26,431 nt of DNA from an uncultured Syntrophaceae bacterium (lineage in GTDB: Bacteria; Desulfobacterota; SM23-61): NCBI GenBank assembly GCA_964421095.1, contig CAYQWO010000007.1, positions 1 to 26,431 of the forward strand, written 5' to 3'. Both the position numbers and the translations under genes were made by a program. Positions 325 to 26,430 of the stretch are shown one piece after another. The notes under the pieces were generated by a model. It saw nothing but the letters and a program-made list of their open reading frames with translations. It was not told the DNA's origin and did not search any database. Every line of letters begins with the position of its first letter. The stretch's first letter is position 1.

Positions 325-726
325 CTACCCCGTAAATTTCTTTTTGATGAAATCCGCAATAATCTTGATGGGGGTCCCCGGAATGAAAACTTCGGCCACC
401 CCCATTTCTTTCAGCTTGTTCGTATCCGTCGGGGAGATGATTCCCCCCACAAGGATCATTTTGTCTCCGGCACCCTTTTCCCGGAGGTTTTGGATGACCC
501 GTTTGGTCAAGCTCAAATGGGCACCGGAGAGGATGCTTAACCCGACGACATCCACATCCTCCTGAATTGCCGCATTGGTAATCATCTCCGGGGTCTGCCG
601 GAGGCCGGTGTAAACCACTTCAAAGCCAGCATCTCTTAGCCCGTAGGCCACCACTTTTGCCCCGCGATCATGGCCGTCCAAACCGGGCTTGGCCACGAGA
701 ACCCTGATTTTCCGTTCCTGATTCAT
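325..726 (-). CDS. B12-binding (small) subunit of split acyl-CoA mutase, MCM C-terminal domain family
   Basis: [15 protein letters not shown] with DxHxxG cobalamin motif, [13 protein letters not shown]; RBS AAGGAGG upstream. Confidence 0.95.
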
Positions 727-777
727 TGAATCGCCTCCTTAGAAAGGTGAGTAGAAAGTTCTATAAGATTCATCGCT

Positions 778-925
778 AAATCCGAAATTAGAATTTCGAA
801 TCCCGCGAAACGCGGGACGAAACAAATCCGAAATGCCAATTTCAAAATTCGAAACGCATGTTTGATCCATTTGGATTTTGAGCGTTCGAATTTATTTCGA
901 ATTTCGTGCTTCGGATTTCGAATTT
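778..925. repeat. TTCGAA/AAATCCGAAAT-rich fold-back intergenic repeat
   Basis: Five TTCGAA hexamers (795, 848, 885, 896, 917), AAATCCGAAAT at 778 and 824, inverted TTCGGATTT at 910-918, perfect hairpin TCCCGCG-AAA-CGCGGGA at 801-817. Confidence 0.75.
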
Positions 926-929
926 TTCG

Positions 930-2672
930 TTATATCGTCGCCGGGTGGTATTCGCCGAAAATTCCTCTCAAAACATCGCATATTTCCTGCTCGGTTACGT
1001 AAGCCTTGGCGCACTCGATAAAATGGGGAATTAAATTTACCTCTTCTTTCTGGGCAGCTGCCCCGAGTTCTTTGAGCAGACGGCTAACTTCTCCATTGCT
1101 CCGGTGCTGCTTCACTTCTTTAAGATTTTCGATCTGTCGGCGTTCCGCCTCTTCCCGGCGATTGGGATCATATGGATGGGGAACCAAGCGGGTAGTGGTG
1201 ACCTCAAGTTCGCTCTCTCCCAGGAAACAATTCACGCCCACGATCAATTCTTTTCCCTCTTCGAGTTTTTTCTGGCGTTCGTAGGCGCTGCGGGCCACCT
1301 CGCGCTGCATATACCCGCTTTCGATGGCGGCTACAGCTCCGCCCATTGATTGAATCTTTTCGAATTCCGCCCAGGATGCGCCTTCGATTTGATCCGTCAA
1401 CGACTCCACGTAGTAAGACCCTGCCAGAGGATCCATCACGTCCACCAGGCGGGCTTCATGCTGCAGAATGCGGGCTGCATCCTCACTGAGTTGAATAGCC
1501 TCCAGGCTCCATCCCAGGCCCAGGGGTTCATCAAAAGGCGGGTAGCAGCCGGGGGGGCCACCGGCCATGGCTGCGGCGATGCCCCCGACGACAGAGCGGA
1601 CGAGGTTGTTCAGGGGTCTTTGCACCGTGCAGTTGAAGTTTCCCGGATAAACGGTAAGGGGAACGCGCAGAGTCATGGACCTTTCATTCTTGGCTCCAAA
1701 CTTTTCCTTAAGAAGCCTAGCCCACATCCTCCGGGCGGCCCGGTGAAAGGCGACTTCCTTAAAAAATTCCATGCTCCCGCCAAAAGCATTAAAAGTAAAA
1801 CGCGGGGCAAAGGCATCCACCGCCAGCCCGGCATTCACCCCTTCCTGCAGGTAAGCCGCCCCAATGGCCATGCTAAAGGCCAGGTCTTGCTCCCGCGTAG
1901 CCCCGGCCTCTCGGATGTGGTAACCCCCGATACTGGTGATGTTCACATTCGGAAGATTCTTGGTAAAGAATACCAAACTGTCTCGAAACATGCGCATGGC
2001 CGGACGGGGAGGAAAGATATAGGTACCCCGGGCCACGTATTCTTTCAGAATGTCATTTTGCGGTGTGGCCCGCAGCTTATCCCAAGCAATTCCCCGTTTT
2101 TCTGCCAGCCCCAGGTACATGGCCATGAGGATGTTCGCGGGGGCATTAATCGTGAAATTTGCCGCTGTGCGGTCTATGTCATTTTCTCCGGAGAAAGCTT
2201 CAAAGATGACCTCCAAGTCCCGCAGCGTATCCACGGCCACGCCCACCCGGCCGACTTCTCCGGCAGCCACCGGGCTGTCCGAATCGTAGCCGCACTGGGT
2301 GGGCAGGTCGAAGGCAACATTGGGGCCGGAGCGGGAACCCAGCTTCTTCATGTGCAGATAATAATCGCGAGTATCTTCCGGCGCCCCATAACCAGAATAA
2401 CGGCCAGCCCGCACTAATCCGGCGGCCTGGGCGATTCCCCCCGAACCCCTTTCCCCTGTCCGGTAGGGAAAGGTCGGATAAGTCCCGGCTGTAAAGGGAT
2501 ACTGGCCGGGGAACCCGACATGGTCCAGGAAATTGAATCCATCTTTCAGGTCTGAGGGGGCATGGAACTGAGTGGGTGACTCTTTGAGCTTAAACCTTTC
2601 CAGGGCCGGCTTGAGAGTCTTATCCTCCCACTGCTTCTTGGCCTCTTCTATTTTCTTTCGCGCTTCTCCCAT
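930..2672 (-). CDS. Acyl-CoA mutase large (substrate-binding) subunit, MCM family, divergent (mutase 1)
   Basis: FPGQYPFTAG, AFDLPTQCGYDSD, GEVGRVGV, PQNDILKEYVARGTYIFPP, GGYHIREAG, DPLAGSYYVESLT, IVGVN; no B12 domain; RBS AGGAGG. Confidence 0.93.
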   Translation of the reverse strand: MGEARKKIEEAKKQWEDKTLKPALERFKLKESPTQFHAPSDLKDGFNFLDHVGFPGQYPFTAGTYPTFPYRTGERGSGGIAQAAGLVRAGRYSGYGAPEDTRDYYLHMKKLGSRSGPNVAFDLPTQCGYDSDSPVAAGEVGRVGVAVDTLRDLEVIFEAFSGENDIDRTAANFTINAPANILMAMYLGLAEKRGIAWDKLRATPQNDILKEYVARGTYIFPPRPAMRMFRDSLVFFTKNLPNVNITSIGGYHIREAGATREQDLAFSMAIGAAYLQEGVNAGLAVDAFAPRFTFNAFGGSMEFFKEVAFHRAARRMWARLLKEKFGAKNERSMTLRVPLTVYPGNFNCTVQRPLNNLVRSVVGGIAAAMAGGPPGCYPPFDEPLGLGWSLEAIQLSEDAARILQHEARLVDVMDPLAGSYYVESLTDQIEGASWAEFEKIQSMGGAVAAIESGYMQREVARSAYERQKKLEEGKELIVGVNCFLGESELEVTTTRLVPHPYDPNRREEAERRQIENLKEVKQHRSNGEVSRLLKELGAAAQKEEVNLIPHFIECAKAYVTEQEICDVLRGIFGEYHPATI

Positions 2673-2842
2673 AATTATTTTACCTCCTATTCCCAGCGAT
2701 CACGTTGCTCCTGGAGTATTATCCTCCCGGGTTTTCTGCGGCGAATCTTTTGTAAGGAATCTTTCCCCTCCTTGCCTGTCCTTTAATTCAGGACTGGAAA
2801 TTGTGAACTTAGATGGATTAGACTGCTGGCGAATTTTCCCTC

Positions 2843-3820
2843 TTATTTTATCAAGCCTATCTTCTTATAAAAAGCGTTAAACCATTCGTAATTAGCCGGT
2901 GCCTCCTTATCGATATCTGCGCCGTCCTTGTAGTCATAGGGAAGATTGATCTGCACCAGCAGCTTCTGGAATTCCGGGCTCTCGGCGACTGTCTTAAAAG
3001 CGTCTTTCAACTTCTTGACGATGGGGTCGGGGAGACCTTTGGGACCCGCTACCATCAGGCCATCCGCGGGATAGTCCTCGCAACCCAGTTCTCTTGAGAT
3101 GGGGATGTCAGGGTAACTGGGGTCCCGTTTGGTGGCATTATAAACCATGAGCAGTCTGAATGCCCCCTGCCTGACGTAGGGAATGTGGGAGCCAGACCCG
3201 GCGATGAAATCGGTATGCTTGCCCAGAAAGGCGGTAATCGCTTCTGCCCCTCCCTTGTAAGGAACATGCTTCAAGTGCAGCCCCTTACATTGGGCGAATA
3301 GGTCCACGGCCAGATGCTGCTGGCTGTACATCCCCGGCGACCCATAGGTGAGGCCCGGGCGGGACTTGGCGTAGGCAATGAACTCGTCGATGGTCTTGAT
3401 GGGAGATTCGCTGAGCACGCACAGGCCGCCGATATACCGGCTGTATTGCAAGAGCGGGGTAAAAGCATTGAATGGGCTGTAAGAGACCTTATAAATCTGG
3501 GGCAGCTGGGCGATCACCCCGGTGGGCACGACCGCCAGCGTGTACCCATCTGGCTTCTTGCTGGCCAACAGGGAAGCGCACACCGTCGAATTTCCCCCGG
3601 GTTTATTCTCGACCATAATCGGGACTCCCAACAGTTTTTCCGCACCCGTGGCCAGTGCTCTCGTCGTGATGTCGGTCGTAGCCCCGGCGACGTAGGCGCA
3701 ATAAAGGGTAATGGACTTGGTCGGGTAATCCTGGGCTGATGTCGAGTAGGGCAGGGAAAGTAGGAAAACCAGAATCAGCCCGGCAAAGAATATTTCCCTA
3801 AAAATTCTAATCGTTTTCAT
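2843..3820 (-). CDS. tctC: Tripartite tricarboxylate transporter substrate-binding protein (TctC/Bug family)
   Basis: Signal peptide, YPTKSITL..AYVAGATTD, VENKPGG, HVPYKGGAEA, PKGLPDPIV. Confidence 0.92.
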   Translation of the reverse strand: MKTIRIFREIFFAGLILVFLLSLPYSTSAQDYPTKSITLYCAYVAGATTDITTRALATGAEKLLGVPIMVENKPGGNSTVCASLLASKKPDGYTLAVVPTGVIAQLPQIYKVSYSPFNAFTPLLQYSRYIGGLCVLSESPIKTIDEFIAYAKSRPGLTYGSPGMYSQQHLAVDLFAQCKGLHLKHVPYKGGAEAITAFLGKHTDFIAGSGSHIPYVRQGAFRLLMVYNATKRDPSYPDIPISRELGCEDYPADGLMVAGPKGLPDPIVKKLKDAFKTVAESPEFQKLLVQINLPYDYKDGADIDKEAPANYEWFNAFYKKIGLIK

Positions 3821-3872
3821 TTTCTTGTCTCCTTTTTATTAGATTTTTCTCAAGGTAAATGGGTCAGTTATT

Positions 3873-5378
3873 TTACCTCGCTTCTTCTAACATCTTTCGC
3901 CTGCGTTTGCGGAAAGCAGGATGGGCCGCCAGGATCAGAAGCACGGCGGCCAAGATTAAGCATCCGCTCGAGATGGGGCGAGTCAAGAAAATGGTGAAGT
4001 CCCCACTCGAAACGATCAGGGATCGCCGCAAGGCTGTCTCTAACATGGGACTCAGAACAAAAGCCAGGATGAAGGGTGCGGGTTCATACTCGAATTTGCG
4101 CATCAGGTAACCTAAAGCACCGAAAAAGAGCATTATGGCTACATCTACCGTACTATTGTTGATCGCATAGGCACCGATGAGGCAAAATAGGAGTATAAGG
4201 GGGAATAAGATGGCGTAGGGAACCCGCAGGACCCGGACCCAGAGGCCAATTAAGGGCAGATTCAGCAGGAGGAGCATAACATTGCCCACGTACATACTGG
4301 CGATGACCCCCCAGAAAAGATCGGGGTGCTCCTTCAATAACATGGGGCCGGGAGTGATGCCGTGCATCATCAGAGCACCGAGGAGAATGGCCTGGACGAC
4401 ACCCACCGGGATCCCCAGGGTGAGCAAAGGGATGAACCCCCCGCTCGCGGCAGCGTTGTTTGCTGATTCAGGACCAGCAACCCCTTCAATTGCTCCGTGG
4501 CCGAACTTTCCCGGAGTCCCTGAACTCATTTTCTCAACGGCGTAAGAGACAAAAGACGCCAGGACGCCTCCGCCGCCCGGCAGAATGCCCAAGAAAAATC
4601 CCACCACGGACCCCCGGACGATGGCCCACTTGCTCTCCATCCAATCCCTAAAGCTGGGCAGGAGCCTGGTGATCTTCGTCGAAATTACCTGCCTCTGGAT
4701 CGTCTTTTCCAGGTTCACGAAGATCTCCGCAATGCCGAAAAGGCCCATGGCCATCGGGACGATTCCCAGCCCATCCAAAAATTCGGGGATATCGAATGAA
4801 AAACGAGCTACGCCCGTTATGGTGTCCAATCCCACGGTTCCCAGAAAGGAACCCACCCCGGCCATCATCAAAGCCTTGATGATCGATTTCTCTACCAAAA
4901 AAATGAGAATGATGAGGCCAAGGATCATAAGAGAAAAATATTCAGGCGCGCCAAATTTGAGGGCAACGGAAACAAGGGGGGGTGCGAGAGCCTGGAGAAT
5001 AATAATCCCCAACGTGCCGGCGATAAAAGATCCAAAGGCAGCAATCCCCAGGGCTGGCCCAGCTCGGCCTTGTCGGGCCATCTGGTAACCATCGAGGCAG
5101 GTGATGACCGAAGCAGCCTCACCGGGAATATTCACCAATATAGAAGTTGTGGAGCCGCCATAATAGGCCCCGTAATAAATACCGGCGAGCATGATGATCG
5201 CGGTAGTGGCAGAAATGCCGTAAGTCATGGGTAAGAGGATAGACATGGTTGCCACTGGCCCGATTCCGGGAAGAACACCGATCAGCGTTCCGATGAAAAC
5301 GCCCAGGAAGCAGAATAAGAGGTTATGGGGTTGGCAAGCAACGCTTAAGCCGGCCATTAAACTACTAAAAAAATCCAT
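3873..5378 (-). CDS. tctA: Tripartite tricarboxylate transporter large permease TctA
   Basis: IGVLPGIGP, YGGSTTSILVNIPG, GPESANNA, TLGIP motifs; ATG at 5378 lies 9 nt after AGGAGG. Confidence 0.95.
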   Translation of the reverse strand: MDFFSSLMAGLSVACQPHNLLFCFLGVFIGTLIGVLPGIGPVATMSILLPMTYGISATTAIIMLAGIYYGAYYGGSTTSILVNIPGEAASVITCLDGYQMARQGRAGPALGIAAFGSFIAGTLGIIILQALAPPLVSVALKFGAPEYFSLMILGLIILIFLVEKSIIKALMMAGVGSFLGTVGLDTITGVARFSFDIPEFLDGLGIVPMAMGLFGIAEIFVNLEKTIQRQVISTKITRLLPSFRDWMESKWAIVRGSVVGFFLGILPGGGGVLASFVSYAVEKMSSGTPGKFGHGAIEGVAGPESANNAAASGGFIPLLTLGIPVGVVQAILLGALMMHGITPGPMLLKEHPDLFWGVIASMYVGNVMLLLLNLPLIGLWVRVLRVPYAILFPLILLFCLIGAYAINNSTVDVAIMLFFGALGYLMRKFEYEPAPFILAFVLSPMLETALRRSLIVSSGDFTIFLTRPISSGCLILAAVLLILAAHPAFRKRRRKMLEEAR

Positions 5379-5397
5379 GAGCAAAAGCCTCCTGGAG

Positions 5398-5856
5398 TCA
5401 GATCCCCAAGATCCCCATGGGCAAGGTCGCTTTCAAAAGAGTATGGAACAGCAAATAAATGAAAGCTGAAGCCGAGAGGGGGATCAGAAGGGCTTTCCAC
5501 CAGGGGAATTTTTCCAACCACTTAAGCATGAAAAAAAGGAGAATGAGGGAGGTAAGAAAAAAACCGGCTCTTTCCAGGGCCAGAATATAGCCCAACATCA
5601 GGAGTCCTACCGCAAGGGGTCGATGCCAATTCAGCCCCTCCCAGAGAGAGGAGAGTTTGGCCTGAAACCCCCGTCCTGGGATGAGCGATCTCAATAATAC
5701 AATGATGGCCATCAGGCTGAAAAAGCATCCGGCCAGGAAAGGGAAAAAGCCCGAACCCGGCTCCCGAAAGGTTCCCAGTTCCAGCAGCACAGACCCATAA
5801 ATGCAGATAAGGCCGAAGACCAGCCAAAAAAGACCACTCACCCGATCGGCTCCCAT
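5398..5856 (-). CDS. tctB: Tripartite tricarboxylate transporter small permease TctB
   Basis: 152 aa, four hydrophobic segments, EPGSGFFP motif, C-terminal LPMG, adjacent to tctA. Confidence 0.9.
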   Translation of the reverse strand: MGADRVSGLFWLVFGLICIYGSVLLELGTFREPGSGFFPFLAGCFFSLMAIIVLLRSLIPGRGFQAKLSSLWEGLNWHRPLAVGLLMLGYILALERAGFFLTSLILLFFMLKWLEKFPWWKALLIPLSASAFIYLLFHTLLKATLPMGILGI

Positions 5857-5865
5857 TGTTTACTC

Positions 5866-7206
5866 CTATTTTCCAGTGAGGTGATCGACTAACTCCATGG
5901 ATAGGCCTGTGTATTTCTCCGGGTCCAGAAGCTGGTCAACTTTCTTCGGGCTTAAATGAGAAGCAACCCGTTCATCAGCCAGGAGCGCTTCCCGGAAGGC
6001 CTGCCCCGTATCGTGAGCTTTCATGGCGATTTCATAGATGATCCTGTGGGCGGCATGATGCCCAACTTTTTCAGCCAAAGCGAACATCACCGGTTCTGAA
6101 AGAATGAGGCCTTTCATCACGTCGATATTGGCCCGCATCTTCTTCTCGTTCACCCAGAGGTCCTGGAGAATGGTTTTGGAATGCTTGAGAACGCCCGAAG
6201 TAAAGATGCAGACCTGAGGGACCATCTCCCATTCCACCATCCATGCGCCCATGTCCCTCTCGTGCTCCTGGACCATTGCTTCCAGAGCCAGGGCGGCGTG
6301 ATAGCGGGTGATCTTGGAAAGAGCGACGATGGCCTCACATATGTGCGGGTTACGCTTCTGAGGCATTGTGCTGCTGCCGACCTTGCCCATGGCGAAAGGT
6401 TCAGCCAGTTCTCCCACCTCGGTCTTCTGGAGGTTGATGACCTCCTTGGCGATCTTTCCCATGGTGGCGCAAATGCCTGCCAGCAGCGACACAAACTCGG
6501 CAATTCGGTCGCGAGCCGGGTGCCAGGTAATCTCAGGATCGCCCAGTCCCAGTTCTTCCATAACTCCTTTTTGTACCTTTAATCCCAAAGCGCCCATGGC
6601 GGCGTGGGTCCCGACGGCCCCGCTGAGATTTCCCACCAGAATTCTTTTCCGGCTTTGCTCCCATCGTTGCAGATGACGTTGAACCTCAGCGAGCCATACA
6701 GCCACCTTGAACCCTAAGGTCAATGGCAGGGCATGCTGCCCGTGGGTGCGACCGGCCATCGGGGTGCCCCGATGCTTTTCGGCCAGCGCCCGGAGGGTTT
6801 CGGCGATGTCTGTCAGATCCCGGAAAATGACTGCCGATGCCTCCTTTATCTGCAACATCATTCCCGTGTCCATGATATCTTGGGTGGTAGGTCCCCAATG
6901 AATATATTCCCCAAAGGCTTTCTGACAGACTTTCTGCAAACCCCAGATCAAGGGCATGATGGGATGAACTGTACGGTCGGCGGATTCCTTGAACTCGTCG
7001 AGGTTGAGGTTTTCGACCTTGGCTTTGGCCGCAATCTCTTGGGCTGCTTCCTTGGGGATCATGCCTAGGTTGCTCTGAACCCGGGCCAGAGCGGCTTCCA
7101 CGTCCAGCCAGCGCTGGAGGCGATACTCATCCGTGAAAATCTCCCGCATCTCCTGGCTCCCAAACCAGTCGCGGAATATCCTGGAATCGATCATCGTTAC
7201 GGCCAT
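5866..7206 (-). CDS. Fumarase/aspartase-superfamily lyase (PcaB / adenylosuccinate-lyase-like clade), substrate unknown
   Basis: Signature GSSTMPQKRNP, HWGPTTQDIMDT, AGRTHGQHA, HERDMGAWMVEW, C-terminal LLDPEKYTG. Confidence 0.88.
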   Translation of the reverse strand: MAVTMIDSRIFRDWFGSQEMREIFTDEYRLQRWLDVEAALARVQSNLGMIPKEAAQEIAAKAKVENLNLDEFKESADRTVHPIMPLIWGLQKVCQKAFGEYIHWGPTTQDIMDTGMMLQIKEASAVIFRDLTDIAETLRALAEKHRGTPMAGRTHGQHALPLTLGFKVAVWLAEVQRHLQRWEQSRKRILVGNLSGAVGTHAAMGALGLKVQKGVMEELGLGDPEITWHPARDRIAEFVSLLAGICATMGKIAKEVINLQKTEVGELAEPFAMGKVGSSTMPQKRNPHICEAIVALSKITRYHAALALEAMVQEHERDMGAWMVEWEMVPQVCIFTSGVLKHSKTILQDLWVNEKKMRANIDVMKGLILSEPVMFALAEKVGHHAAHRIIYEIAMKAHDTGQAFREALLADERVASHLSPKKVDQLLDPEKYTGLSMELVDHLTGK

Positions 7207-7230
7207 GGTTTCTTAACCTCAAAATTTTAT

Positions 7231-8442
7231 TTATCGTTCAGGATGAAATTTTTTCATGTCTTTCTCGCGCACAAGGAAGATGAGAATCAACAGGGCTGCA
7301 ACCCAGGAGATGGCCAAAAAATCCCAGGCTGGGGTGTAAGAACCCAGGCGGTCGACGAGGTGGCCGAAGAACGGTGGAAACAGGATAACCCCTAAAAAAG
7401 TAATGGTCATGGAGAAGCCCATGGCCAGTCCGACCAGTTTATGGTCAGCCTGCTCGGCGATGAAGCTTAAGAGGACGCCGTGAAAGCCGATGGCCGTGAA
7501 TCCCAGGAGCACGATGATTAGAAAAAGAAACATGCCTGGTTTATCCGGCTCCATGCGGCCCAGAAGAAAGAGCTGCCCAACGGCGATGATTCCAATGATC
7601 AAGAGGATAGATTTTCTCTTTCCTCTTACCAGGAAATCGCTGATTAACCCCCAGCCAACCCGTCCAGCCGTTCCCCCCGCCTGGGAGACAGCCAGATAAA
7701 TCCCAGCCAGGACCGAAGAAAAAAGGAATTTGCTCTTCAGAAATAAAACCAGGTGGGTAATGATAGAGAGCTGAACACCGGCCAAAAATATCCCCATGAT
7801 CGAAAGGGCCAGGATTTCCCTGTTAGTAAAAACTTCCCAGAGCTGGCCCCAGCGTATCGGAGCCCGCTGGCTTTGGATGCCCGGAGGTGGCGCCATTAGG
7901 AGCCAGGGAACCAATAGAAATAGGCATGTGGTCAGGCCTGCGAAGACGATGGAGGTGCGCCATCCGAAAACTAAAGCCAAGCCAGGAAGGGCTAAAGCGG
8001 CTAAAATACCGCCTAAGGGAATGCCCGTCTGTTTGATCCCCATAGCCGTAGCTCTTCCTTGGGGCGGAAACCAACTCATCACTACTTTCGTGGTGGCCGG
8101 ATTCACGCTACAGTAACCGATGCCCGCCAAAAAAAGGAAAAGGCCCCCGATGAGGAGAGTATGGATCGAAGCGAAACTGGTCATGAAGGCTCCCTGTATT
8201 CCCAGACCGAATACCAGAGCCCGGCGTTCTCCCAGGAGGTCGGTCAACCAGCCAGCAGGGATGGAGGCAGAGACGACGCCAGCGTAAAAAGCAGACATCA
8301 GCATTCCTACCTGAGCGTGAGTGAGATGCAGTTCATCTCGCAAAAAGGGGGTGAGAGGAGGGATGCTCAAATTGCAAAAAGAAGATACGGTATGCGAGAG
8401 CGTCATGACCATCAAAATAGCCACTAAGCGGGGATTTCTCAT
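7231..8442 (-). CDS. MFS transporter (organic anion type)
   Basis: About 12 hydrophobic segments, motif-A-like GWLTDLLGERR, WFPPQGRATAMG, GLISDFL; start moved to ATG 8442 to avoid overlap with dctM. Confidence 0.85.
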   Translation of the reverse strand: MRNPRLVAILMVMTLSHTVSSFCNLSIPPLTPFLRDELHLTHAQVGMLMSAFYAGVVSASIPAGWLTDLLGERRALVFGLGIQGAFMTSFASIHTLLIGGLFLFLAGIGYCSVNPATTKVVMSWFPPQGRATAMGIKQTGIPLGGILAALALPGLALVFGWRTSIVFAGLTTCLFLLVPWLLMAPPPGIQSQRAPIRWGQLWEVFTNREILALSIMGIFLAGVQLSIITHLVLFLKSKFLFSSVLAGIYLAVSQAGGTAGRVGWGLISDFLVRGKRKSILLIIGIIAVGQLFLLGRMEPDKPGMFLFLIIVLLGFTAIGFHGVLLSFIAEQADHKLVGLAMGFSMTITFLGVILFPPFFGHLVDRLGSYTPAWDFLAISWVAALLILIFLVREKDMKKFHPER

Positions 8443-8495
8443 TTTTTCATTCTTCTCAACACATGAACAGATCCCCTGGCAGTATAGAAAAAATT

Positions 8496-10300: not shown

Positions 10301-10320
10301 TTAAGAACCTCCATCGTTTG

Positions 10321-10371
10321 TCCCCTCACCCTTCCCCTCTCCCCAATGGGAAGAGTGAAAAGATGAGGGGA
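10321..10371. repeat. REP-like palindrome between dctP and dctQ
   Basis: TCCCCTCA(10321-28)...TGAGGGGA(10364-71) outer stem with an inner imperfect CTCTCCCC-AAT-GGGAAGAG hairpin. Confidence 0.6.
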
Positions 10372-10385
10372 ATAGTGGTGCGAGA

Positions 10386-11411: not shown

Positions 11412-11456
11412 ACCTAAACCCTCCTTTCAGAAAAATCGCGCTGTAATTGCACGAAT

Positions 11457-11485
11457 ATGCTCACATTTTTGAGACAACTTGTCAA
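11457..11485 (-). promoter_or_regulatory. Candidate sigma70 internal promoter for dctP
   Basis: Minus strand TTGACA-N17-GAGCAT with TG at the extended -10 position; the -10 is weak (3/6). Confidence 0.35.
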
Positions 11486-11568
11486 GCGGGTTTCGATACC
11501 GTGCGTTACGGCTTTCCCGAATTATCAGCGATCTCATCCTTCGAGGCCCTGATTGGATCGCCTTGATT

Positions 11569-17066: not shown

Positions 17067-17120
17067 ACGGGGCAGGGGTAGATGAAGCCCTATAAAATCA
17101 GGCTCAAAAGGGGGAAGAAG

Positions 17121-18353: not shown

Positions 18354-18364
18354 GAGGATAATCT

Positions 18365-19240: not shown

Positions 19241-19260
19241 GCGGGGTAGAGAGAGATAAC

Positions 19261-20238
19261 GTGAATCTTTCGAGCATGACTCCTGGAAAGAAAAAGGCGT
19301 TGTTGTTGGTCCTTTGCGCTTTTTTGGTGGCGGCTCCCGCTCTTCTCACAGGGTACTGGATAAGAACGCTGACGGACATATTCATGTTTGCCATATTGGC
19401 CGCCAGCTGGAATCTCATTGCGGGCTATTGCGGTTATCCCGCTTTTGGTAACGTGGTCTTCTTCGGCCTGGGGGCCTATACGACAGGGATTCTCATGACC
19501 AAACTTCAGTTCTCGCTCCTTTCGGCAGTAGCTTCGGGGGGAATTCTGGCGGTGGTTCTGGCGGTGCTTTTGGGTTTCCCCTTACTGCGGCTCAAAGGGC
19601 ACTATTTTGCCATCGCCACTCTGGGAGTAAATGAAGCGCTGAGAGAAGTCGTTATCAACCTTACTGACCTTACGGGAGGGGGCTACGGAATCACTCTGCC
19701 GATTCTTCCTGGAAAGGTTGAATTCATCCTGGCCTTATTCTATTTCCTCATGCTGGGGCTTCTGGCGGCGGTGATCTTGCTTACCCAATTCATTTCGCAA
19801 AGCCGCTTCGGCTTTGGCTGCCGGGCGATTCGCGCGGACGAAGATGCGGCGGCTGTGCTCGGAATCCATACAACGAAATACAAGATCATAGCCTGGAGCT
19901 TGAGCGCCTTGTTTACGGGCTTGGCCGGAGGGTTATACGCTGCGTGGATGACGTATATCGATCCGGTCAGCGTCTTTGACATGAGCATTGCCGTCAAATT
20001 CTGCATCATGGTCCTGCTGGGAGGGGCGGGAACGGTTTGGGGGCCTGTTATAGGAGCTTTTATCCTCGAAATGATTTCCGTAATGGTCTGGTCCAAATTC
20101 GTCATCCTGCATGCCGCGATCCTGGGATTCATCATCATTCTGGTGGTCATTTTGATGCCTCGAGGGTTTATGCAGTTTATCCGGGGCCGTTTGAGCATGG
20201 CGGTTTTGCTGGCCAACATCAAGGAGAATCGAATCTGA
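19261..20238 (+). CDS. livM: HAAT-family ABC permease LivM
   Basis: SWNLIAGYCG, LRLKGHYFAIATLG, RAIRADEDAA, LGGAGTVWGP, PRG. Confidence 0.92.
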   Translation: MNLSSMTPGKKKALLLVLCAFLVAAPALLTGYWIRTLTDIFMFAILAASWNLIAGYCGYPAFGNVVFFGLGAYTTGILMTKLQFSLLSAVASGGILAVVLAVLLGFPLLRLKGHYFAIATLGVNEALREVVINLTDLTGGGYGITLPILPGKVEFILALFYFLMLGLLAAVILLTQFISQSRFGFGCRAIRADEDAAAVLGIHTTKYKIIAWSLSALFTGLAGGLYAAWMTYIDPVSVFDMSIAVKFCIMVLLGGAGTVWGPVIGAFILEMISVMVWSKFVILHAAILGFIIILVVILMPRGFMQFIRGRLSMAVLLANIKENRI

Positions 20239-21002
20239 TGGAAGTTTTGTTAGAAGGCGAGCGGGTAAGCAAATTTTTTGGGGGGCTGGAAGCGATCCAC
20301 GATCTTTCTTTCCAGGTCCACAAAGGAGAAATTACCGGCCTCATCGGGCCGAACGGAGCCGGGAAAACGACCCTGATCAACTTGATCACCGCTATTTACC
20401 CTGTATCGACGGGGAAAATCCGCTTTAAAGGAAAGGACATCACCCAAACGAAAGCCTACGAAATTGGCGAGATGGGGATCGCCCGAACGTTCCAGATTGC
20501 CAAACCTTTCTCAGGAATGACCGTGGGAGAGAATATCCTGATCGGAGCCTGGTTCGGAAAGTCAGGGATGAAGCGGACCAAGCAGGAGGCCTTGAAGAAA
20601 GTAGACGAGGTCCTGGAACTGGTCGGCCTTAGGAAGAAACAAGGCGTTTTAGTGGAGCAGACGACAATCCCCGACAGGAAAAGATTGGAACTGGGCAAAG
20701 CCCTGGCCATGGAGCCAGAGCTCCTGTTTCTGGATGAAGTAATGGCTGGGCTGACCCCGAAAGAAACGGAAGACGTGATGGCTTTGGTGAAGGAGTTAAA
20801 TCGGAAAGGAATTACCATTCTGGTCATCGAACACGTGATGAAAGCGATCATGGGCATCTCGGACCGGATCCTGGTCCTCGATCAAGGGAAGTTGCTCGCC
20901 CAGGGAACACCCGAAGAAATTTCTAAAAATGAAAGGGTCATTGGAGCCTACCTGGGGGCCAGGTACGCTCAAAAGAGTGGAATCAGGGTTAGCGATGCTT
21001 GA
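20238..21002 (+). CDS. livG: HAAT-family ABC ATPase LivG
   Basis: Walker A GPNGAGKTT, ARTFQ, LFLDEVMAGL, IEH; ATG overlaps the livM TGA. Confidence 0.93.
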   Translation: MEVLLEGERVSKFFGGLEAIHDLSFQVHKGEITGLIGPNGAGKTTLINLITAIYPVSTGKIRFKGKDITQTKAYEIGEMGIARTFQIAKPFSGMTVGENILIGAWFGKSGMKRTKQEALKKVDEVLELVGLRKKQGVLVEQTTIPDRKRLELGKALAMEPELLFLDEVMAGLTPKETEDVMALVKELNRKGITILVIEHVMKAIMGISDRILVLDQGKLLAQGTPEEISKNERVIGAYLGARYAQKSGIRVSDA

Positions 21003-21699
21003 AATAAGAGCGATTGAAGTGGCTTATGGAGACATCCAAGTCCTGTGGGGAATCAACTTGGAGGTCCACCAAGGGGAGATTGTCTCCATTATTGGATCCA
21101 ATGGGGCGGGAAAATCGACCCTGATTCGGACCATCTCCGGCTTGATCCGGCCCTTTCGGGGGGACATCTTTTATAGGGGGACGATGATTACCCATCAGCC
21201 TCCCAGTGAGATCGTAATGAGAGGAATTTCCCAGGTCCCGGAAGGAAGAAAACTGTTCTCCGGCATGACGGTCCAAGAAAATTTGATGATGGGATCCTAT
21301 TGCCGGAATAACCGCCAGGAGATAGAAGAGGACCTCAATTTCGTCTATCATCTTTTTCCCCGGCTGGCGGAAAGAAGAAAGCAGATTGCCGGAACTTTGA
21401 GTGGCGGAGAGCAGCAGATGTCGGCTATTGGCCGGGCTTTGATGTCCCGTCCCCAACTGCTTCTCATCGATGAACTCTCCCTCGGTCTTTCTCCTCTTTT
21501 AGTGGATAACCTCATGGAGGCCATCGGCCAGGTCCATCGAAGGGGGACAAGCATCCTGCTGGTCGAGCAGGACGTGCAAATTGCTCTGGAGCATGCCCAT
21601 CGGGGCTATGTGCTGGAGACTGGCCGTATTGTCCTTTCCGGACTATCCAAGGACTTGCTGGAAAATCCCGAGGTTAGGAGGTCGTACCTAGGGATTTGA
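20995..21699 (+). CDS. livF: HAAT-family ABC ATPase LivF
   Basis: GSNGAGKST, QVPEGRKLF, LSGGEQQM, IDELSLGLSP, LVEQ. Confidence 0.95.
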   Translation: MLEIRAIEVAYGDIQVLWGINLEVHQGEIVSIIGSNGAGKSTLIRTISGLIRPFRGDIFYRGTMITHQPPSEIVMRGISQVPEGRKLFSGMTVQENLMMGSYCRNNRQEIEEDLNFVYHLFPRLAERRKQIAGTLSGGEQQMSAIGRALMSRPQLLLIDELSLGLSPLLVDNLMEAIGQVHRRGTSILLVEQDVQIALEHAHRGYVLETGRIVLSGLSKDLLENPEVRRSYLGI

Positions 21700-21749
21700 A
21701 TTCGATGGAATTTCTTCCTCATCATCCCCTGAGATCTTAACAAAAGGTC

Positions 21750-23000
21750 ATGCCTAAATTTTTATTCAAACCTGCATCTTCCTGGGGCGTCGTGGCGATT
21801 TCCTTCGTCAATATCGCCCTGGCCTACGGCCTGAACTTCTCCTTTTCCGTGTTCTTCGTAGCGATCTTGGAGGAGTTTAAATGGAGCAGGGCCAGTATAG
21901 CGGGGGCTTTCTCGTTATCGTCTCTCGTATTAGGAATCGGGTCCTGGCCGGGAGGAAGGCTTATTGACCGATTCGGACCCCGAAAAATGTTGATGGTCGG
22001 GGCCATCATCCTTTCTTTGGCCACGATGGCCAGTGCGCTGATCCGGGAGGTCTGGCATCTTTACTTTCTTTTTGGAATCTTAGCTGGCCTGGGCATTTGC
22101 GGTCTGGGGTGGGTGCCCAATTCGGTCCTGCTTTCCAACTGGTTCGTGAAAAACCGGGGCAGCATGGTGGGCATCGCCTTCTCCGGGATGGGAATCGGAA
22201 TTCTTGCTGTGGGACCTTCGGCCCAATACCTTATATCCAGCCTGGGATGGCGAATGGCTTACTTGGTCTTTGGCCTGGCGGTCTTGGCGATCCTGCTGCC
22301 GTTAAACCTTTTTTTGCAGGACCGGCCGAATGGAAAACTGAAAAGTGAAGGCTCGGACCCAGATCAACAAAACCCGCTTCCCCAGGCCGAGAGCCCCAGC
22401 GAGAAAGGGGATTGGACCTTAAACCGTTCTATGAAAACCCTGCCTTTCTGGGCGCTCTTTATCTCTTTTTTTCTCATTCCTTTAGGCATTTATCCTGTAG
22501 CCATCCACCAGGTGGCCTACATCATCGACCAGGGCTACAGCAAGATATTGGCTGCTTTTGTCTTCGGAACCATGGGTTTATTGAGCACGGTCGGAAGGCC
22601 CCTTTTCGGAGCTCTCTCCGACCGCATCGGCAGAGAGAAAGCCGTCACCTGGAGCTTTATCAGTTCCATCGCCGGAATTCTCCTTCTCATTTTCTTGCCC
22701 GCCCTAAAAGCGGTATTCTGGCTCTACCTTTACGCCATCCTCTTCGGATTGGGCTTTGGAGCGCGCGGTCCCATCGTGGCGGCCATGCTGGCCGATAGAT
22801 TTTCGGGAAAATATTTTGGGAGTATCTATGGCTTCATTAACATCGGCAATGGGATGGGAGGGGCATTGGGTCCCTGGCTGGGAGGGGTTCTTTACGATTC
22901 GACCGGCAGCTACAGGATTCCCTTCCTTTTATGTATCCCGGTTCTGGTACTGGCCTGCTTCCTTTTCTGGGTAGCTGGGTCCGTCAGAGAGAAGAAATGA
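21750..23000 (+). CDS. MFS transporter (OFA/monocarboxylate-like)
   Basis: GRLIDRFGPR and GALSDRIGRE motif A, WFVKNRG, about 12 TM segments. Confidence 0.9.
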   Translation: MPKFLFKPASSWGVVAISFVNIALAYGLNFSFSVFFVAILEEFKWSRASIAGAFSLSSLVLGIGSWPGGRLIDRFGPRKMLMVGAIILSLATMASALIREVWHLYFLFGILAGLGICGLGWVPNSVLLSNWFVKNRGSMVGIAFSGMGIGILAVGPSAQYLISSLGWRMAYLVFGLAVLAILLPLNLFLQDRPNGKLKSEGSDPDQQNPLPQAESPSEKGDWTLNRSMKTLPFWALFISFFLIPLGIYPVAIHQVAYIIDQGYSKILAAFVFGTMGLLSTVGRPLFGALSDRIGREKAVTWSFISSIAGILLLIFLPALKAVFWLYLYAILFGLGFGARGPIVAAMLADRFSGKYFGSIYGFINIGNGMGGALGPWLGGVLYDSTGSYRIPFLLCIPVLVLACFLFWVAGSVREKK

Positions 23001-23032: not shown

Positions 23033-23061
23033 TTGATTTGGTAGGATGTCGGGAAAATAAT
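23033..23061 (+). promoter_or_regulatory. Candidate sigma70 internal promoter for the TAXI-TRAP genes
   Basis: TTGATT-N17-AATAAT, followed by a GCACC-CAT-GGTGC hairpin before the AGGAGG RBS. Confidence 0.4.
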
Positions 23062-23106
23062 TGGATCAGCACCCATGGTGCCAATTTAGGAGAGGAGGTT
23101 AAGAAA

Positions 23107-24255
23107 ATGAGATTTTTAGGAAAGAGCCTTGTTTCCGGGGGGATCATTTTGGGTCTCTTATTGGCTATGATAACCCCGGCACTTGCTGCCGAAAAAACCT
23201 CTGGATTACCGGAGATGATGACCTGGAGTGCGTTCGATGTCGGCTCCAGAGGCTATGTTCAGGGGGCAGCAATATCGAATGCCTTAACCAAAAAATACAA
23301 AACGAAAGTGAGAATCCTGCCCTCGGGTACATCGATCGGCCGGATGCAGCCATTGAAAACTGGGGCGGCCAGTTACGGCCTTCTGGCCGACGAAGTTTTC
23401 TTTGCCGTAGAAGGCCTTTATGAATTCTCGCATATTGATTGGGGCCCGCAGGATCTAAGGGTTGCCCTGGCCCATCCGGCCCCCGTAAGCATAGTGGCCA
23501 CCGCCAAAAGTGGTATCAAAACACCCAAGGATTTTAAAGGGAAAAGGATTGCGTGGATTCCCGGGTCTTCGACGAGTAACGTAAAAACAGAGGCCTACCT
23601 TGCTTTTGCGGGGTTAACCTGGAAAGATGTCCAGAGAGTTGATATGCCCAGTTATGCCTCCGCCATGAAAGGTTTGATTGAGGGCAAGGTGGATGCCATG
23701 AATGTGGGGATCACAGCTCCGACCCTTTACGAACTTGAAACCTCACCCATGGGCATCTTCTGGCCAGAGTTTCCCCCTTCCGACAAGGAGGGTTGGAAAA
23801 GAATGAATGCCATCGCTCCTTGGCTTTCTCCTGGCAAATGCGAAATTGGACCGGGAATTAAAAAGGGACAACCTAAGGATCTTATTTCTTACACGTACCC
23901 TCAGTTGGTAACTTATGCCAAACAAGATGCCGGGGAAGTGTACGCCCTGGTGCAAGGGTTTGATGAAACCTTTGATATGTATAAGGATGCGGACCCAGAG
24001 TTGCCCGAATGGGCTATTTCCAGGTCTGGCCGAACCCCGGCCGGCGCCCCCTTTCACGAAGGGGCGATCCGTTATCTGAAAGAAAAAGGAATCTGGACCG
24101 CCGCCTCCGACCAATGGAACCAGAAATTTTTGGAGCGGGTAAAGAAACTACAAGAGGCCTGGAAAGTCACGCTCCAAGAAGCGAAGAGCAAAGGGATTTC
24201 GGAAAAAGATTTTCCTGAATTTTGGCTTAACAAGAGAAAGGGAATCAAGGATTAA
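23107..24255 (+). CDS. TAXI-family TRAP solute receptor
   Basis: Signal peptide, FDVGSRGY, DFKGKRIA, LIEGKVDA, APFHEGAIRYLKE; ATG 23107 follows AGGAGG. Confidence 0.88.
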   Translation: MRFLGKSLVSGGIILGLLLAMITPALAAEKTSGLPEMMTWSAFDVGSRGYVQGAAISNALTKKYKTKVRILPSGTSIGRMQPLKTGAASYGLLADEVFFAVEGLYEFSHIDWGPQDLRVALAHPAPVSIVATAKSGIKTPKDFKGKRIAWIPGSSTSNVKTEAYLAFAGLTWKDVQRVDMPSYASAMKGLIEGKVDAMNVGITAPTLYELETSPMGIFWPEFPPSDKEGWKRMNAIAPWLSPGKCEIGPGIKKGQPKDLISYTYPQLVTYAKQDAGEVYALVQGFDETFDMYKDADPELPEWAISRSGRTPAGAPFHEGAIRYLKEKGIWTAASDQWNQKFLERVKKLQEAWKVTLQEAKSKGISEKDFPEFWLNKRKGIKD

Positions 24256-24362: not shown

Positions 24363-24413
24363 CTTCGCCCAGCAGCTTATTTACGGACAAGCTCTAAGGG
24401 TTTCTTGAAATAG

Positions 24414-24443
24414 GGCAGGGAGATCGCTCGGGATCTCCCCGCC
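24414..24443. repeat. Intergenic hairpin upstream of the fused TRAP permease
   Basis: GGGAGATC-GCTCGG-GATCTCCC 8-bp stem extended by GGC/GCC after one mismatch; no U-tract. Confidence 0.45.
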
Positions 24444-24495
24444 GAAATCTCTGGGAATGTTTGAGCAAATTGGCCTGCCGGAATAAAGGAAAGGT

Positions 24496-26430
24496 ATGGG
24501 TATGGCCGAGATAAAAAAAATTCCGCGGCTGAATACCTTTTGGCATATTATTTTTGTTCTCTTTTCCATAATTGGCATTGGGCTGGCGGTCAATCAACTG
24601 TTCAGGCTGGAGCTATTTGGGTTTGCCCCGATCGATACTTCTTACTTTTACTTGATCCTGGCTTTTTATCTACCTGGTTCCTTTCTCCTCTACCCTGCGG
24701 GCTCATCCACCAGGGCCAAGCGAGTGCCCTGGTATGATGCCGGGCTCTTTCTGCTTAGTCTTATCATTGGAATATATTTTGCCCTTCACGGCCTGGATAT
24801 TATCGAATTAGGTTGGGAATACACTGCTCCTTTCACGCCCACCATTTTCAGTGTCTTGCTCTGGATTTTCGTTTTGGAAGCAGTGCGGCGGTCCACCGAT
24901 ATTTACTTGACGGTCGTATGTCTGGTTTTTTCGCTCTATCCCCTGTTTGCCTTTTATCTGCCGGGCTTCTTGCAAGGACAGTCCTACGATTTTTTTACTA
25001 CCGCCCGGCTGCATTCTATGGGCCGGAATGGGATCATTGGCATTCCTCTGGATGTCGTATGTACCCTTTTGATTGGTTTTATGGTTTTTGGAATTGTGTT
25101 GCAGGGGACCGGCGGCGGAACCTTCTTCTTTAAGTTAGCCCAGTCTCTATTGGGTCATACCCGAGGAGGGGCGGCCAAGATTAGCATATTGGCCAGCGCC
25201 TTTTTTGGCATGATCAGCGGCAGTACCACCTCCAATACGCTCACGATTGGTTCCATGACCATCTCGGCCATGAAAACCACGGGGTTCCCGGCCCATTACG
25301 CTGCGGCCATTGAAGCCTGTGCCTCGACCGGCGGACCGATCATGCCTCCGGTGATGGGGGCGGCAGCTTTCATTATGGCCTCCTTTCTCAACCAATCTTA
25401 TGCTTATGTGTGCATCGGAGCATTTATCCCGGCCTGTCTTTATTATTTAGGCCTTTTTATTCAGGTGGACGGTTTTTCAGCAAAGGCCAACCTGAAGGGG
25501 CTGCCCAAAGAGGAACTGCCCTCCTTTTGGGGAACTTTGAAGGATGGCTGGTTTTATATTTCGGTGATCGTTATATTGGTGTATCTATTGCTGACTCTAC
25601 ATCTTGAGGCGCGGGCCCCCTATTATGCGAGTGCCGCCCTGGTCGTGCTTTCGATGTTGAAAAAGGAAACTCGCTTGACCTGGATAAAAGCGATTGATTT
25701 GATCGCAGATATCGGCAAAGTGGTGACTCAACTTGTGGCCATATTAGCTGCGGCGGGACTCATCATCGGAGGTCTTTCGATCACCGGGGTGGCCTTGGCT
25801 TTTTCCAGGGAGCTGGTCGGGGCCGTAGGCAACAACCTATTCCTCATTCTGCTGATGGGGGCTTTTTCGAGTTTTGTGTTAGGCTTGGGGATGACGATCA
25901 CGGCCTGCTATATTTTCCTGGCCATTGTCATGGTCCCGGCACTCATCACCCTGGGGCTGGACCCTCTGGCGGCGCACTTATTTGTATTCTACTGGGGGGT
26001 TTTGTCCGAGATCACCCCCCCGGTTGCGCTGTGCGTGAGTGCCGCTTGCGGGCTGGCGGGTTCTAATTTTATGCAGACGGGATGGACTGCTATGAGACTC
26101 GGGGCCATTAAATACATCATTCCCTTCTTTTTCGTTTACAATCCCGCCTTGTTGACCCATGCCGTATGGTGGCAAGTTTTGCTTTATACCTTTTTTGCGG
26201 TGGTTGGCATCTTTTATCTGGGGTCTGCGTTAGAGGGCTATCTTTGGGGAGTCGGAAACTTAGGTTTGATCCCCCGTATTCCCTTGATTATCGGAGGCCT
26301 GTTAACGGCGTTCCCTGAAATCATAACCACCCTGATCGGGATCCTAATTCTCGCAATTGTTAACATCCTACTCCTATTGCTGAGCAGGCAGAAAAAGAAG
26401 GCATTGATGTCTTCTATGAACCTTTCTTGA
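24496..26430 (+). CDS. TRAP transporter fused permease (4TM/12TM, TAXI-associated)
   Basis: GIIGIPL, GGAAK, GMISGS, EACASTGGPIMPPVMGAAAF, LGLGM, SEITPPVAL; stop codon at 26428-26430. Confidence 0.93.
   Translation: MGMAEIKKIPRLNTFWHIIFVLFSIIGIGLAVNQLFRLELFGFAPIDTSYFYLILAFYLPGSFLLYPAGSSTRAKRVPWYDAGLFLLSLIIGIYFALHGLDIIELGWEYTAPFTPTIFSVLLWIFVLEAVRRSTDIYLTVVCLVFSLYPLFAFYLPGFLQGQSYDFFTTARLHSMGRNGIIGIPLDVVCTLLIGFMVFGIVLQGTGGGTFFFKLAQSLLGHTRGGAAKISILASAFFGMISGSTTSNTLTIGSMTISAMKTTGFPAHYAAAIEACASTGGPIMPPVMGAAAFIMASFLNQSYAYVCIGAFIPACLYYLGLFIQVDGFSAKANLKGLPKEELPSFWGTLKDGWFYISVIVILVYLLLTLHLEARAPYYASAALVVLSMLKKETRLTWIKAIDLIADIGKVVTQLVAILAAAGLIIGGLSITGVALAFSRELVGAVGNNLFLILLMGAFSSFVLGLGMTITACYIFLAIVMVPALITLGLDPLAAHLFVFYWGVLSEITPPVALCVSAACGLAGSNFMQTGWTAMRLGAIKYIIPFFFVYNPALLTHAVWWQVLLYTFFAVVGIFYLGSALEGYLWGVGNLGLIPRIPLIIGGLLTAFPEIITTLIGILILAIVNILLLLLSRQKKKALMSSMNLS

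Follow-up and report, generated by a model that had tools for sequence, protein, structure and literature searches.

In the Sbm operon of Escherichia coli, a three-step logic is established for succinate, with ScpC as the CoA-transferase, ScpA as the mutase and ScpB as a crotonase-type decarboxylase. To our knowledge, the specificities of only a handful of acyl-CoA mutases have been assayed, namely methylmalonyl-CoA mutase (MCM), isobutyryl-CoA mutase (ICM), ethylmalonyl-CoA mutase (ECM), 2-hydroxyisobutyryl-CoA mutase (HCM), pivalyl-CoA mutase (PCM) and, indirectly, the Iaa mutase. The logic of CoA-transferase, mutase and decarboxylation is also established for (2-aminophenyl)succinate in the iaa pathway (PMC8360864), and it has been proposed for alkylsuccinates in the ass islands, which carry genes for a carboxyl transferase, MmgE/PrpD, a crotonase and a split mutase (PMC13685792); ECM-like mutases yield 2-pentylsuccinyl-CoA in secondary metabolism (PMC5719088). 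A search of the literature for named substituted-succinyl-CoA mutases found the iaa paper only. Here we analyze a stretch of 26,431 nucleotides from an uncultured Syntrophaceae bacterium of sediment (contig CAYQWO010000007.1 of assembly GCA_964421095.1; hereafter the window), in which two operons, each with its own split B12-dependent mutase, diverge from positions 13132-13767. Judging from its genes, the window probably, though by no means certainly, comprises two modules, independent of each other, that break down imported di- or tricarboxylic acids, now stand back to back with a mobile repeat between them and are each built around a different non-canonical, adenosylcobalamin-dependent and carboxylate-binding acyl-CoA mutase. 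An earlier note on this DNA had proposed the locus as a candidate for an undescribed type of pathway; this view had to be given up, because IaaL/IaaGH (PMC8360864), the ass-island genes (PMC13685792) and E. coli Sbm use the same logic, and it is the two mutase clades and the scale of their expansion in this lineage that appear to be undescribed in the literature searched.

The window is the entire contig C7 of a metagenome-assembled genome (MAG; 4.0 Mb in 591 contigs, 80% completeness). Gene identities were taken from the listing of open reading frames (ORFs) and from Pfam and NCBIfam scans of the window, which confirmed every gene named in the earlier note, both split mutase pairs, their divergence and the six transport systems. 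The order to which the bacterium belongs consists of a single family and is represented by 17 species genomes, to which all distribution counts refer; G000 is the own genome, G003-G018 are genomes of the order, L numbers are compared loci and C numbers are contigs. The enzyme genes of the two operons are:

325-726, minus strand: mutS1, small B12-binding subunit of mutase 1, 133 aa (PF02310, 84.9 bits; TIGR00640, 174 bits; DGHDRG, the DxHxxG motif at residue 17)
930-2672, minus strand: mutL1, large subunit of a non-canonical acyl-CoA mutase (PF01642, 457 bits)
5866-7206, minus strand: lyase of the adenylosuccinate lyase (ASL)/3-carboxymuconate cycloisomerase (CMLE) branch of the fumarase superfamily (PF00206, Lyase_1; PF10397, ADSL_C)
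11569-13131, minus strand: carboxyltransferase of the PccB/MmdA/12S type (PF01039, 617 bits; TIGR01117, 760 bits against a cut-off of 999)
13768-14961, plus strand: family III CoA-transferase, closest to succinyl-CoA:dicarboxylate transferases of the SUGCT type (PF02515, CoA_transf_3, 403.7 bits)
14997-16613, plus strand: mutL2, large subunit of a non-canonical acyl-CoA mutase (PF01642, 678.7 bits)
16656-17066, plus strand: mutS2, small B12-binding subunit of mutase 2, 136 aa (PF02310, 85.6 bits; DGHDRG)

Both pairs belong to the acyl-CoA mutase superfamily, with 457 and 679 bits for PF01642 (the mutase TIM barrel) in the large subunits, 85 and 86 bits for PF02310 in the small subunits and, in both of the latter, DGHDRG, the motif of a base-off/His-on cobalamin domain. 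We aligned mutL2 to the MCM of P. shermanii (1req) and mutL1 to 1req and 4r3u, and residues are numbered as in 1req (chain index + 1 gives the literature numbering). Both large subunits retain Tyr89, Gln197, Arg207 and His244. In MCM, Tyr89 and Arg207 are taken here to hold the free carboxylate of the substrate; at these two positions the ICM-like relatives in our comparison set have Phe and Gln, and the HCM-like ones Ile/Val and Gln. As both window mutases keep Tyr89 and Arg207, a dicarboxylyl-CoA substrate is expected for both. The top-scoring solved structure for both large subunits was that of HcmAB (4r3u), which shares the split architecture, but neither has the HCM determinants Ile90, Asp117 and Gln in place of Arg207: where HCM has Ile/Val (position 89), Asp117 and Gln (position 207), the window proteins have Tyr, Ala and Arg. 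With Tyr and Arg they also lack the ICM signature (Phe at Tyr89, Gln at Arg207), which is found in a mutase on contig C484 of the same genome.

The remainder of the pocket differs from MCM in both proteins. mutL2 has Ala for Tyr243 (SGAH), Gly for His328 and Val for Gln330 (RFGVVCGG), and also departs in a VQSMFTCA strand. Its best 120 homologues, which reach down to 61% identity and include source-named Binataceae, 'Deltaproteobacteria' and the cultured Firmicute Metallumcola ferriviriculae, all have SGAH or, mostly, AGAH, and nearly all have RFGVVCGG or a near variant. mutL1 retains Tyr243-His244 and has a 13-aa insertion ahead of Tyr89; its His328/Gln330 strand reads RVPLTVYPGN where MCM has RTHSQTSG, and it has GGPPGCYPPFDE, reading GGPPGCYPP, where MCM has GGTQSLHTNSxDE. 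Many homologues of mutL1 at 77-99% come from 'Thermodesulfobacteriota/Deltaproteobacteria' MAGs, and among species representatives its nearest relative beyond the own family is a Chloroflexi MAG (53%); its RAxRYSG(Y/F) feature also occurs in three other full-length clusters (50% clustering). The His328/Gln330 strand is altered as well in reference mutases with larger substrates, reading RYGVQV in the Streptomyces malaysiensis ECM and RMIAAGGGGG in the Aromatoleum buckelii Iaa mutase. The canonical MCM signature (RQY(A/S)GF, (V/A)R(N/G)TYI, SGYH, R(F/T)H(T/S)QT and GGTQSLHTNS) is complete in a mutase on contig C21 and is found in neither window protein.

We reconstructed a tree of 44 mutase large subunits with IQ-TREE (support pairs as given by the analysis). 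The ECM reference, from S. malaysiensis, was identified from the gene immediately upstream, which encodes crotonyl-CoA carboxylase/reductase (TIGR01751, 620 bits), and from that of a CitE-like lyase downstream, and the Iaa reference is from an iaa-like cluster of A. buckelii reached via the iaaF primer of PMC8360864. The mutL2 family (100/99) is sister (99/99) to a group comprising the Iaa mutase, the C153 and C22 mutases of the own genome and one Myxococcota sequence. The mutL1 clade (100/100) sits on a long stem (1.37) together with the own C328 and C174 mutases, and is almost confined to the own bacterial family. The canonical split MCMs, including those of C21 and C317, form a separate clade (99/97), and Ecm groups weakly with fused MCMs (SH-aLRT 63) and with neither window mutase. 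The large-subunit phylogeny that the earlier note had called for thus places both window mutases outside the canonical MCM clade, whereas it was a position of both inside canonical MCM clades that the note had named as speaking against its idea, and the claim that neither is a housekeeping MCM is borne out by motifs and tree alike.

These results bear on whether the operons are extra copies of an ordinary methylmalonyl-CoA pathway, in which both mutases would run between succinyl-CoA and methylmalonyl-CoA and serve, as conditions vary, to decarboxylate succinate or to oxidize propionate. Such copies would be in keeping with the retained Tyr89, Arg207 and His244, with a carboxyltransferase near PccB/MmdA/12S, and with the methylmalonyl-CoA epimerase in relatives of the left operon and the ScpC and SucCD in relatives of the right one, all above cut-off. 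However, the genome already has a canonical set on C21, both mutases lie outside the canonical clade, the changes at Tyr243, His328 and Gln330 are held across the mutL2 family to 61% identity (the strand nearly always, or as a near variant), and the acyl-pocket loop of the carboxyltransferase is altered too; we regard ordinary copies as very improbable.

The CoA-transferase that heads the right operon has succinate--glutarate CoA-transferase as its top NCBIfam match (322 bits against a cut-off of 750) and SUGCT (9br7) as its top match in the PDB. Orthologues of the transferase (87-94%), mutL2 (88-91%) and mutS2 (72-91%) occur together in L001, L086 and G009, each time with the transferase directly upstream of mutL2; in L086 and G009 the set is followed by a small protein of unknown family and then by a TAXI-type tripartite ATP-independent periplasmic (TRAP) transporter. 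The second major facilitator superfamily (MFS) transporter of the window, MFS 2, has orthologues (66-73%) near mutL2 in L082 and G009, and the TAXI binding protein (71%) and its permease (62%) have orthologues downstream of a mutL2 family member in L088. Clusters of distant mutL2 family members have a GntR regulator and, in the slot of the CoA-transferase, a transferase of another family (ScpC type above the NF053853 cut-off, or AtoDA type), then mutL, mutS, bona fide SucC/SucD and a crotonase, and often a TAXI-TRAP system.

Compared with the described systems, the right module resembles IaaL/IaaGH of the anaerobic indoleacetate (iaa) pathway of Aromatoleum, in which a free 2-substituted succinate is handled by a phenylsuccinyl-CoA transferase of family III together with a split B12-dependent phenylsuccinyl-CoA/benzylmalonyl-CoA mutase; the Iaa mutase from A. 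buckelii, which belongs to the group sister to the mutL2 family, is also without His328 and Gln330. Yet this mutase is only 47% identical to mutL2 and 36% to mutL1 and keeps Tyr243 where mutL2 has Ala, the protein in the IaaL position is 26% identical to the window transferase, and the IaaF-type acyl-CoA dehydrogenase, hydantoinase and ligase genes of iaa have no counterpart in the window, where a carboxyltransferase replaces the decarboxylating dehydrogenase. The Sbm operon shares transferase, mutase and decarboxylation of a dicarboxylate, and distant mutL2 members lie in clusters of the order ScpC-mutase L-mutase S-SucC-SucD-crotonase; however, its mutase is a fused canonical MCM, whereas the window has a family III transferase, no crotonase, no MeaB and a remodelled pocket. 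Ecm/MeaA likewise keep Tyr89 and Arg207, have Gly for His328 as in mutL2 and work on a substituted malonyl/succinyl pair, but they are fused, keep Gln330 and Tyr243 and are encoded beside ccr and mcl; the window subunits are split, the window has no ccr, and mutL2 shares with Ecm only the change of His328 to Gly.

For the right module, a dicarboxylate that receives its CoA from succinyl-CoA is the substrate suggested by the SUGCT-like transferase and by the presence of SucCD/ScpC next to the mutase in relatives. The acid would probably be taken up by the TAXI-TRAP system and/or MFS 2, and the transferase would probably make its CoA thioester with succinyl-CoA as the donor. Mutase 2 may then shift the thioester, converting a 2-substituted succinyl-CoA to a (substituted-methyl)malonyl-CoA, or carry out a related 1,2-shift on a dicarboxylyl-CoA.

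The left operon is conserved in its own set of relatives. The order of the window is kept in L123 (carboxyltransferase 92%, DctPQM 69-78%, lyase 83%, mutL1 90%), and G007, G010, L122 and L124 have a longer cluster of carboxyltransferase, FAD oxidoreductase, a 153-aa protein, a PrpD-family protein, methylmalonyl-CoA epimerase (TIGR03081, above cut-off), DctPQM, mutL1, mutS1 and a second PrpD-family protein. Orthologues of mutS1 (86-89%) come after mutL1 in relatives, those of DctPQM (62-78%) lie between the carboxyltransferase or epimerase and mutL1 in L122-L124, G007 and G010, and the first MFS transporter (MFS 1) has a 65% orthologue in the same position in L122. The lyase is part of the longer cluster in G007 only; its orthologues (77-83%) are directly upstream of mutL1 in L123 and G007. 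Upstream on the same G007 contig are TctBAC (TctA 75%, TctC 61%), a second mutL1-clade paralogue, a family III transferase and a second lyase, and between this block and the carboxyltransferase there are genes for Iso_dh, Amidohydro_2 and two dehydrogenases. The mutL1 clade is therefore genuinely associated with a carboxyltransferase, epimerase, PrpD proteins, the lyase and TRAP/Tct importers, and the modules appear to have been reshuffled between relatives.

The lyase keeps GSSTMPQKRN (residue 277) and THGQ (residue 154), the signatures of the ASL/CMLE branch; it scores below the cut-off of every NCBIfam equivalog, and its nearest solved structures are 3c8t, the CMLE 1re5 and Tad1 (9h3i). The nearest structures to the carboxyltransferase are 1vrg, 1x0u and 1on3. 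It has an unusual acyl-pocket loop, RKAYGGSIPGMCC, and this loop is distinct in each of the eight paralogues of the genome. No biotin carrier and no pump or 5S partner for it was found in the window, PYC_OADA had no match, and the sole OAD_beta is on C21.

The relatives of the left module share their set of protein families with the ass/mas islands (PMC13685792), and the two modules of the window could accordingly be seen as the downstream half of anaerobic alkane degradation, with alkylsuccinates supplied by an alkylsuccinate synthase that would be encoded in the unassembled fifth of the genome. The islands, however, have a glycyl-radical enzyme, and the earlier note's observation that no alkane-activating enzyme of this kind lies in the window was extended: PF02901, the PFL-like glycyl-radical family, had no match in the 80%-complete genome, and in the eight contexts of mutL1-branch mutases that were inspected, no PFL-like gene lies less than 10 kb from the mutase. 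The locus has carboxylate importers and a lyase instead, and its uptake systems, one of them of the tricarboxylate type, suit hydrophilic carboxylates, so that the alkane route is very unlikely. Under the favoured reading of two carboxylate modules, the substrates of the left one would be tricarboxylic or hydroxy-polycarboxylic acids; the Tct transporter, the PrpD proteins, the kin of the lyase that act on 3-carboxymuconate and trans-aconitate, and Iso_dh in relatives point to this. Such an acid would enter via TctABC, DctPQM and the MFS transporter, the lyase might add to, or eliminate from, an acid resembling fumarate or aconitate, mutase 1 would rearrange the CoA ester, and the PccB-like carboxyltransferase may remove (or add) the malonyl-type carboxyl, with biotin carrier and pump subunits encoded elsewhere. 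It is plausible that the recurring set of importer, CoA-transferase, mutase, epimerase and carboxyltransferase or crotonase serves activation, a 1,2-thioester shift and loss of a malonyl-type carboxyl.

Some variants of the left cluster were seen among the relatives. In L123 no small-subunit gene adjoins the mutL1 orthologue (10001-11743); the B12-binding gene closest to it is that of a second mutase (19983-21743, about 50% to mutL2), 8 kb away in a block of succinate/fumarate/malate genes, and the small subunit may be shared by the two mutases. A mutL1-clade gene of G003 (C2, 93428-95086) was read through one in-frame TGA, which may reflect a pseudogene, a sequencing error or a recoded codon. 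Two distant representatives of the mutL1 branch showed no tie to alkane islands in their contexts, which comprise Aconitase_C, mutase, CoA-transferase and TctC in the first and hydantoinase, acyl-CoA dehydrogenase, mutase, enoyl-CoA hydratase, CoA-transferase, PrpD and MeaB in the second.

The earlier note had asked whether the neighbourhood is conserved across genomes, and its picture held in part: each operon is conserved by itself in relatives, but the twin locus is not conserved as a unit, the two operons having different distributions and lying on separate contigs in G011. Orthologues of mutL2 (at least 90%) are present in three of the 17 genomes (the own genome, G009 and G011) and the mutL1 clade in 14, with none in G009, which has mutL2. 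In G011 the mutL1-clade gene and mutL2 are on different contigs, and the stretch examined upstream of its mutL2 operon had no match to a left-module gene except an unrelated, weakly similar TRAP system. Relatives of each operon show different neighbours at the position of the junction. The divergent region contains a 302-bp repeat (13430-13731) that resembles a miniature inverted-repeat transposable element, with perfect 19-bp terminal inverted repeats, and at least 25 contigs of the genome carry full, partial or internally deleted copies of it, often at their ends. In four sediment metagenomes (Logan contigs), words from the repeat are 25-80 times as deep as those from the flanks, loose ends occur at 13425-13428 and 13732-13737, at or a few bases from the repeat boundaries, and no contig among those listed bridges the repeat. 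With a multicopy repeat at the junction and no bridging contig, the MAG assembly is therefore the sole source for the adjacency of the operons. The separate distributions and the repeat together suggest that the operons were recently brought together or, with lower probability, that the assembly was joined across the repeat. Some copies of the repeat also adjoin other mutase genes (on C317, C387 and C590).

A single integrated pathway, in which the right transferase would feed both mutases and the left carboxyltransferase would finish both routes, could explain why, within the window, a CoA-activating enzyme is missing from the left operon and a decarboxylating enzyme from the right one. Two divergent operons with non-canonical mutases, one of these mutases being of the mutL1 branch, are likewise found in a Chloroflexi groundwater MAG (L217, 4298-17538), and this twin layout points the opposite way to a chance juxtaposition. 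Set against this are the differing distributions, mutL2 being confined, outside the own genome, to G011 and to G009, which lacks the mutL1 clade, against 14 of 17 genomes with that clade, as well as the separate contigs in G011, the other junction neighbours in relatives, and a multicopy junction repeat without independent bridging; we consider an integrated pathway rather unlikely. In L217 the mutL1-branch mutase carries the insertion, the other mutase has Gly at position 243 and RCFGGGG, each operon has a family III CoA-transferase, and crotonases and TctC-like proteins are nearby.

Independent modules for imported acids would rely on the six transport systems of the window, which include four binding proteins:

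2843-3820, minus strand: TctC of a tripartite tricarboxylate-type transporter (PF03401)
3873-5384, minus strand: TctA of the same transporter type (PF01970)
5398-5856, minus strand: TctB of the same transporter type (PF07331)
7231-8544, minus strand: MFS transporter 1 (PF07690, 168.9 bits)
8496-9776, minus strand: DctM of a TRAP transporter (PF06808)
9773-10300, minus strand: DctQ of a TRAP transporter (PF04290)
10386-11411, minus strand: DctP of a TRAP transporter (PF03480)
17082-18353, plus strand: LivK-type binding protein (PF13458) of a LivKHMGF ATP-binding cassette (ABC) system (17082-21699)
18365-19240 and 19261-20238, plus strand: two LivH/M-type permeases (PF02653 twice)
about 20240-21002 and about 21000-21699, plus strand: two LivG/F-type ATPases (PF00005 twice)
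21750-23000, plus strand: MFS transporter 2 (PF07690, 198 bits)
23038-24255, plus strand: TAXI binding protein of a TRAP transporter (TIGR02122, 182.8 bits)
24496-26430, plus strand: fused DctQM permease of the TAXI-TRAP system (TIGR02123, 587 bits)

The listed TTG start of MFS 1 overlaps dctM, and the real start is probably downstream of it. The ABC system is not found at the matching position in relatives, which have a 131-161 aa protein of unknown family there instead. An Rfam scan of the whole window gave no family match and no cobalamin riboswitch, and promoter and terminator counts in positions 1-14000 were equal to or below the shuffled expectation.

The abundance of uptake systems is relevant to the direction of flux. 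Mutases and carboxyltransferases are reversible, and an assimilatory or biosynthetic use, in which an acyl-CoA would be carboxylated, epimerized and rearranged to a substituted succinyl-CoA as in the ethylmalonyl-CoA pathway or in the synthesis of the actinonin/matlystatin warhead, has a precedent in the ECM-like mutases that form 2-pentylsuccinyl-CoA in secondary metabolism (PMC5719088). Such reverse flux seems highly improbable, however, as the window has no crotonyl-CoA carboxylase/reductase, biotin carboxylase, nonribosomal peptide synthetase or polyketide synthase, and its six uptake systems indicate catabolism.

For the two-module reading, we infer the direction of flux, the CoA donor, the substrates and the coupling to the Na+-pump beta subunit of C21, and several points weigh against it. 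Candidate substrates include methylsuccinate, glutarate, arylsuccinates and tricarballylate, which sequence cannot separate, and for the TAXI, DctP and LivK binding proteins the closest sequences in the PDB were too distant to hint at ligands. The earlier note's division into carbon-substituted substrates, for the transferase, mutases and decarboxylase, and heteroatom-substituted ones, for the lyase, gained no support. His328 and Gln330 are presumed, in line with the structural literature, to have a role in the substrate pocket of MCM. Type-A relatives of mutase 2 adjoin succinate-specific ScpC and SucCD (NCBIfam cut-offs), which would also fit plain succinate metabolism. The carboxyltransferase linked to mutL1 varies, being of the C22 type (GGAFAAMSN) in L124 and G007 and GGSIPGMCC in the window and L123, and this weakens a strict pairing of the enzymes. 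To these must be added the left operon's lack of a CoA-activating enzyme, mentioned above.

Within the genome, the window is one of several such loci. The 80%-complete genome encodes 12 mutase large subunits, about 23 family III CoA-transferases and nine carboxyltransferases, and modules of transferase, mutase, carboxyltransferase and TRAP transporter repeat on C22, C153, C328 and C174, so that the combination of functions which the earlier note had recognized in the window recurs at several loci. Contig C21 carries a housekeeping set with a mutase of canonical signature, a small subunit, a carboxyltransferase, an epimerase-type glyoxalase, malic enzyme, fumarase and the only Na+-pump beta subunit of the genome. 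All 17 genomes of the order have 8-22 first-look mutase candidates each. This raises the possibility, which we put forward tentatively, that the family lives largely by B12-dependent rearrangement, drawing on some nine non-canonical mutases, each combined with a CoA-transferase, a variant of the carboxyltransferase and a TRAP/Tct importer of its own, as a toolkit that would turn branched or substituted di- and tricarboxylic acids into alkylmalonyl-CoAs, whose decarboxylation would feed one shared Na+-pumping decarboxylase; in the same tentative proposal, the mutL2 family, which also occurs in Binataceae and Firmicutes and always with a CoA-transferase, often with SucCD, a crotonase and TAXI-TRAP, would represent a widespread dicarboxylate pathway with a new mutase specificity.

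The two mutases thus define well-populated sequence clades in which the catalytic machinery is intact and the carboxylate anchor is kept while the pockets are rebuilt, and their conserved contexts suggest a transporter, a transferase and a decarboxylating partner for each. The substrates of these enzymes, once found, would add new B12 reactions, would clarify how bacteria of anoxic sediments use branched and substituted organic acids, and might be relevant to the rearrangement step, as yet unproven, in the anaerobic degradation of alkanes. The family-wide expansion of mutases marks a lineage with an unusually high cobamide demand.

Further features were observed at the compared loci. On C21 (L131, 6427-8271), a 614-aa odd fusion of an HMGL-like (5S-type) domain with a Cache/PDC sensor-like domain lies between the Na+-pump beta subunit and the carboxyltransferase. 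The C22 module (L132, 1482-14571) comprises CoA_transf_3, an aminotransferase, DUF6282, a racemase-fold protein like arylmalonate decarboxylase, the large and small subunits of a non-canonical mutase, DctP, fused DctQM, a carboxyltransferase and PrpD; a 126-aa ORF on the same contig (7712-8092) is a stray C-terminal mutase fragment. In the complete genome CP097128.1 (L306, 2571-20282), a distant mutL1-branch mutase is found inside an iaa-like cluster with genes for hydantoinase A/B, a short-chain dehydrogenase/reductase, an acyl-CoA dehydrogenase, the mutase, an enoyl-CoA hydratase, a B12 subunit, CoA_transf_3, an aldehyde dehydrogenase, PrpD and MeaB, and two genes for 434-aa DDE transposases flank this cluster, giving it the look of a composite transposon.

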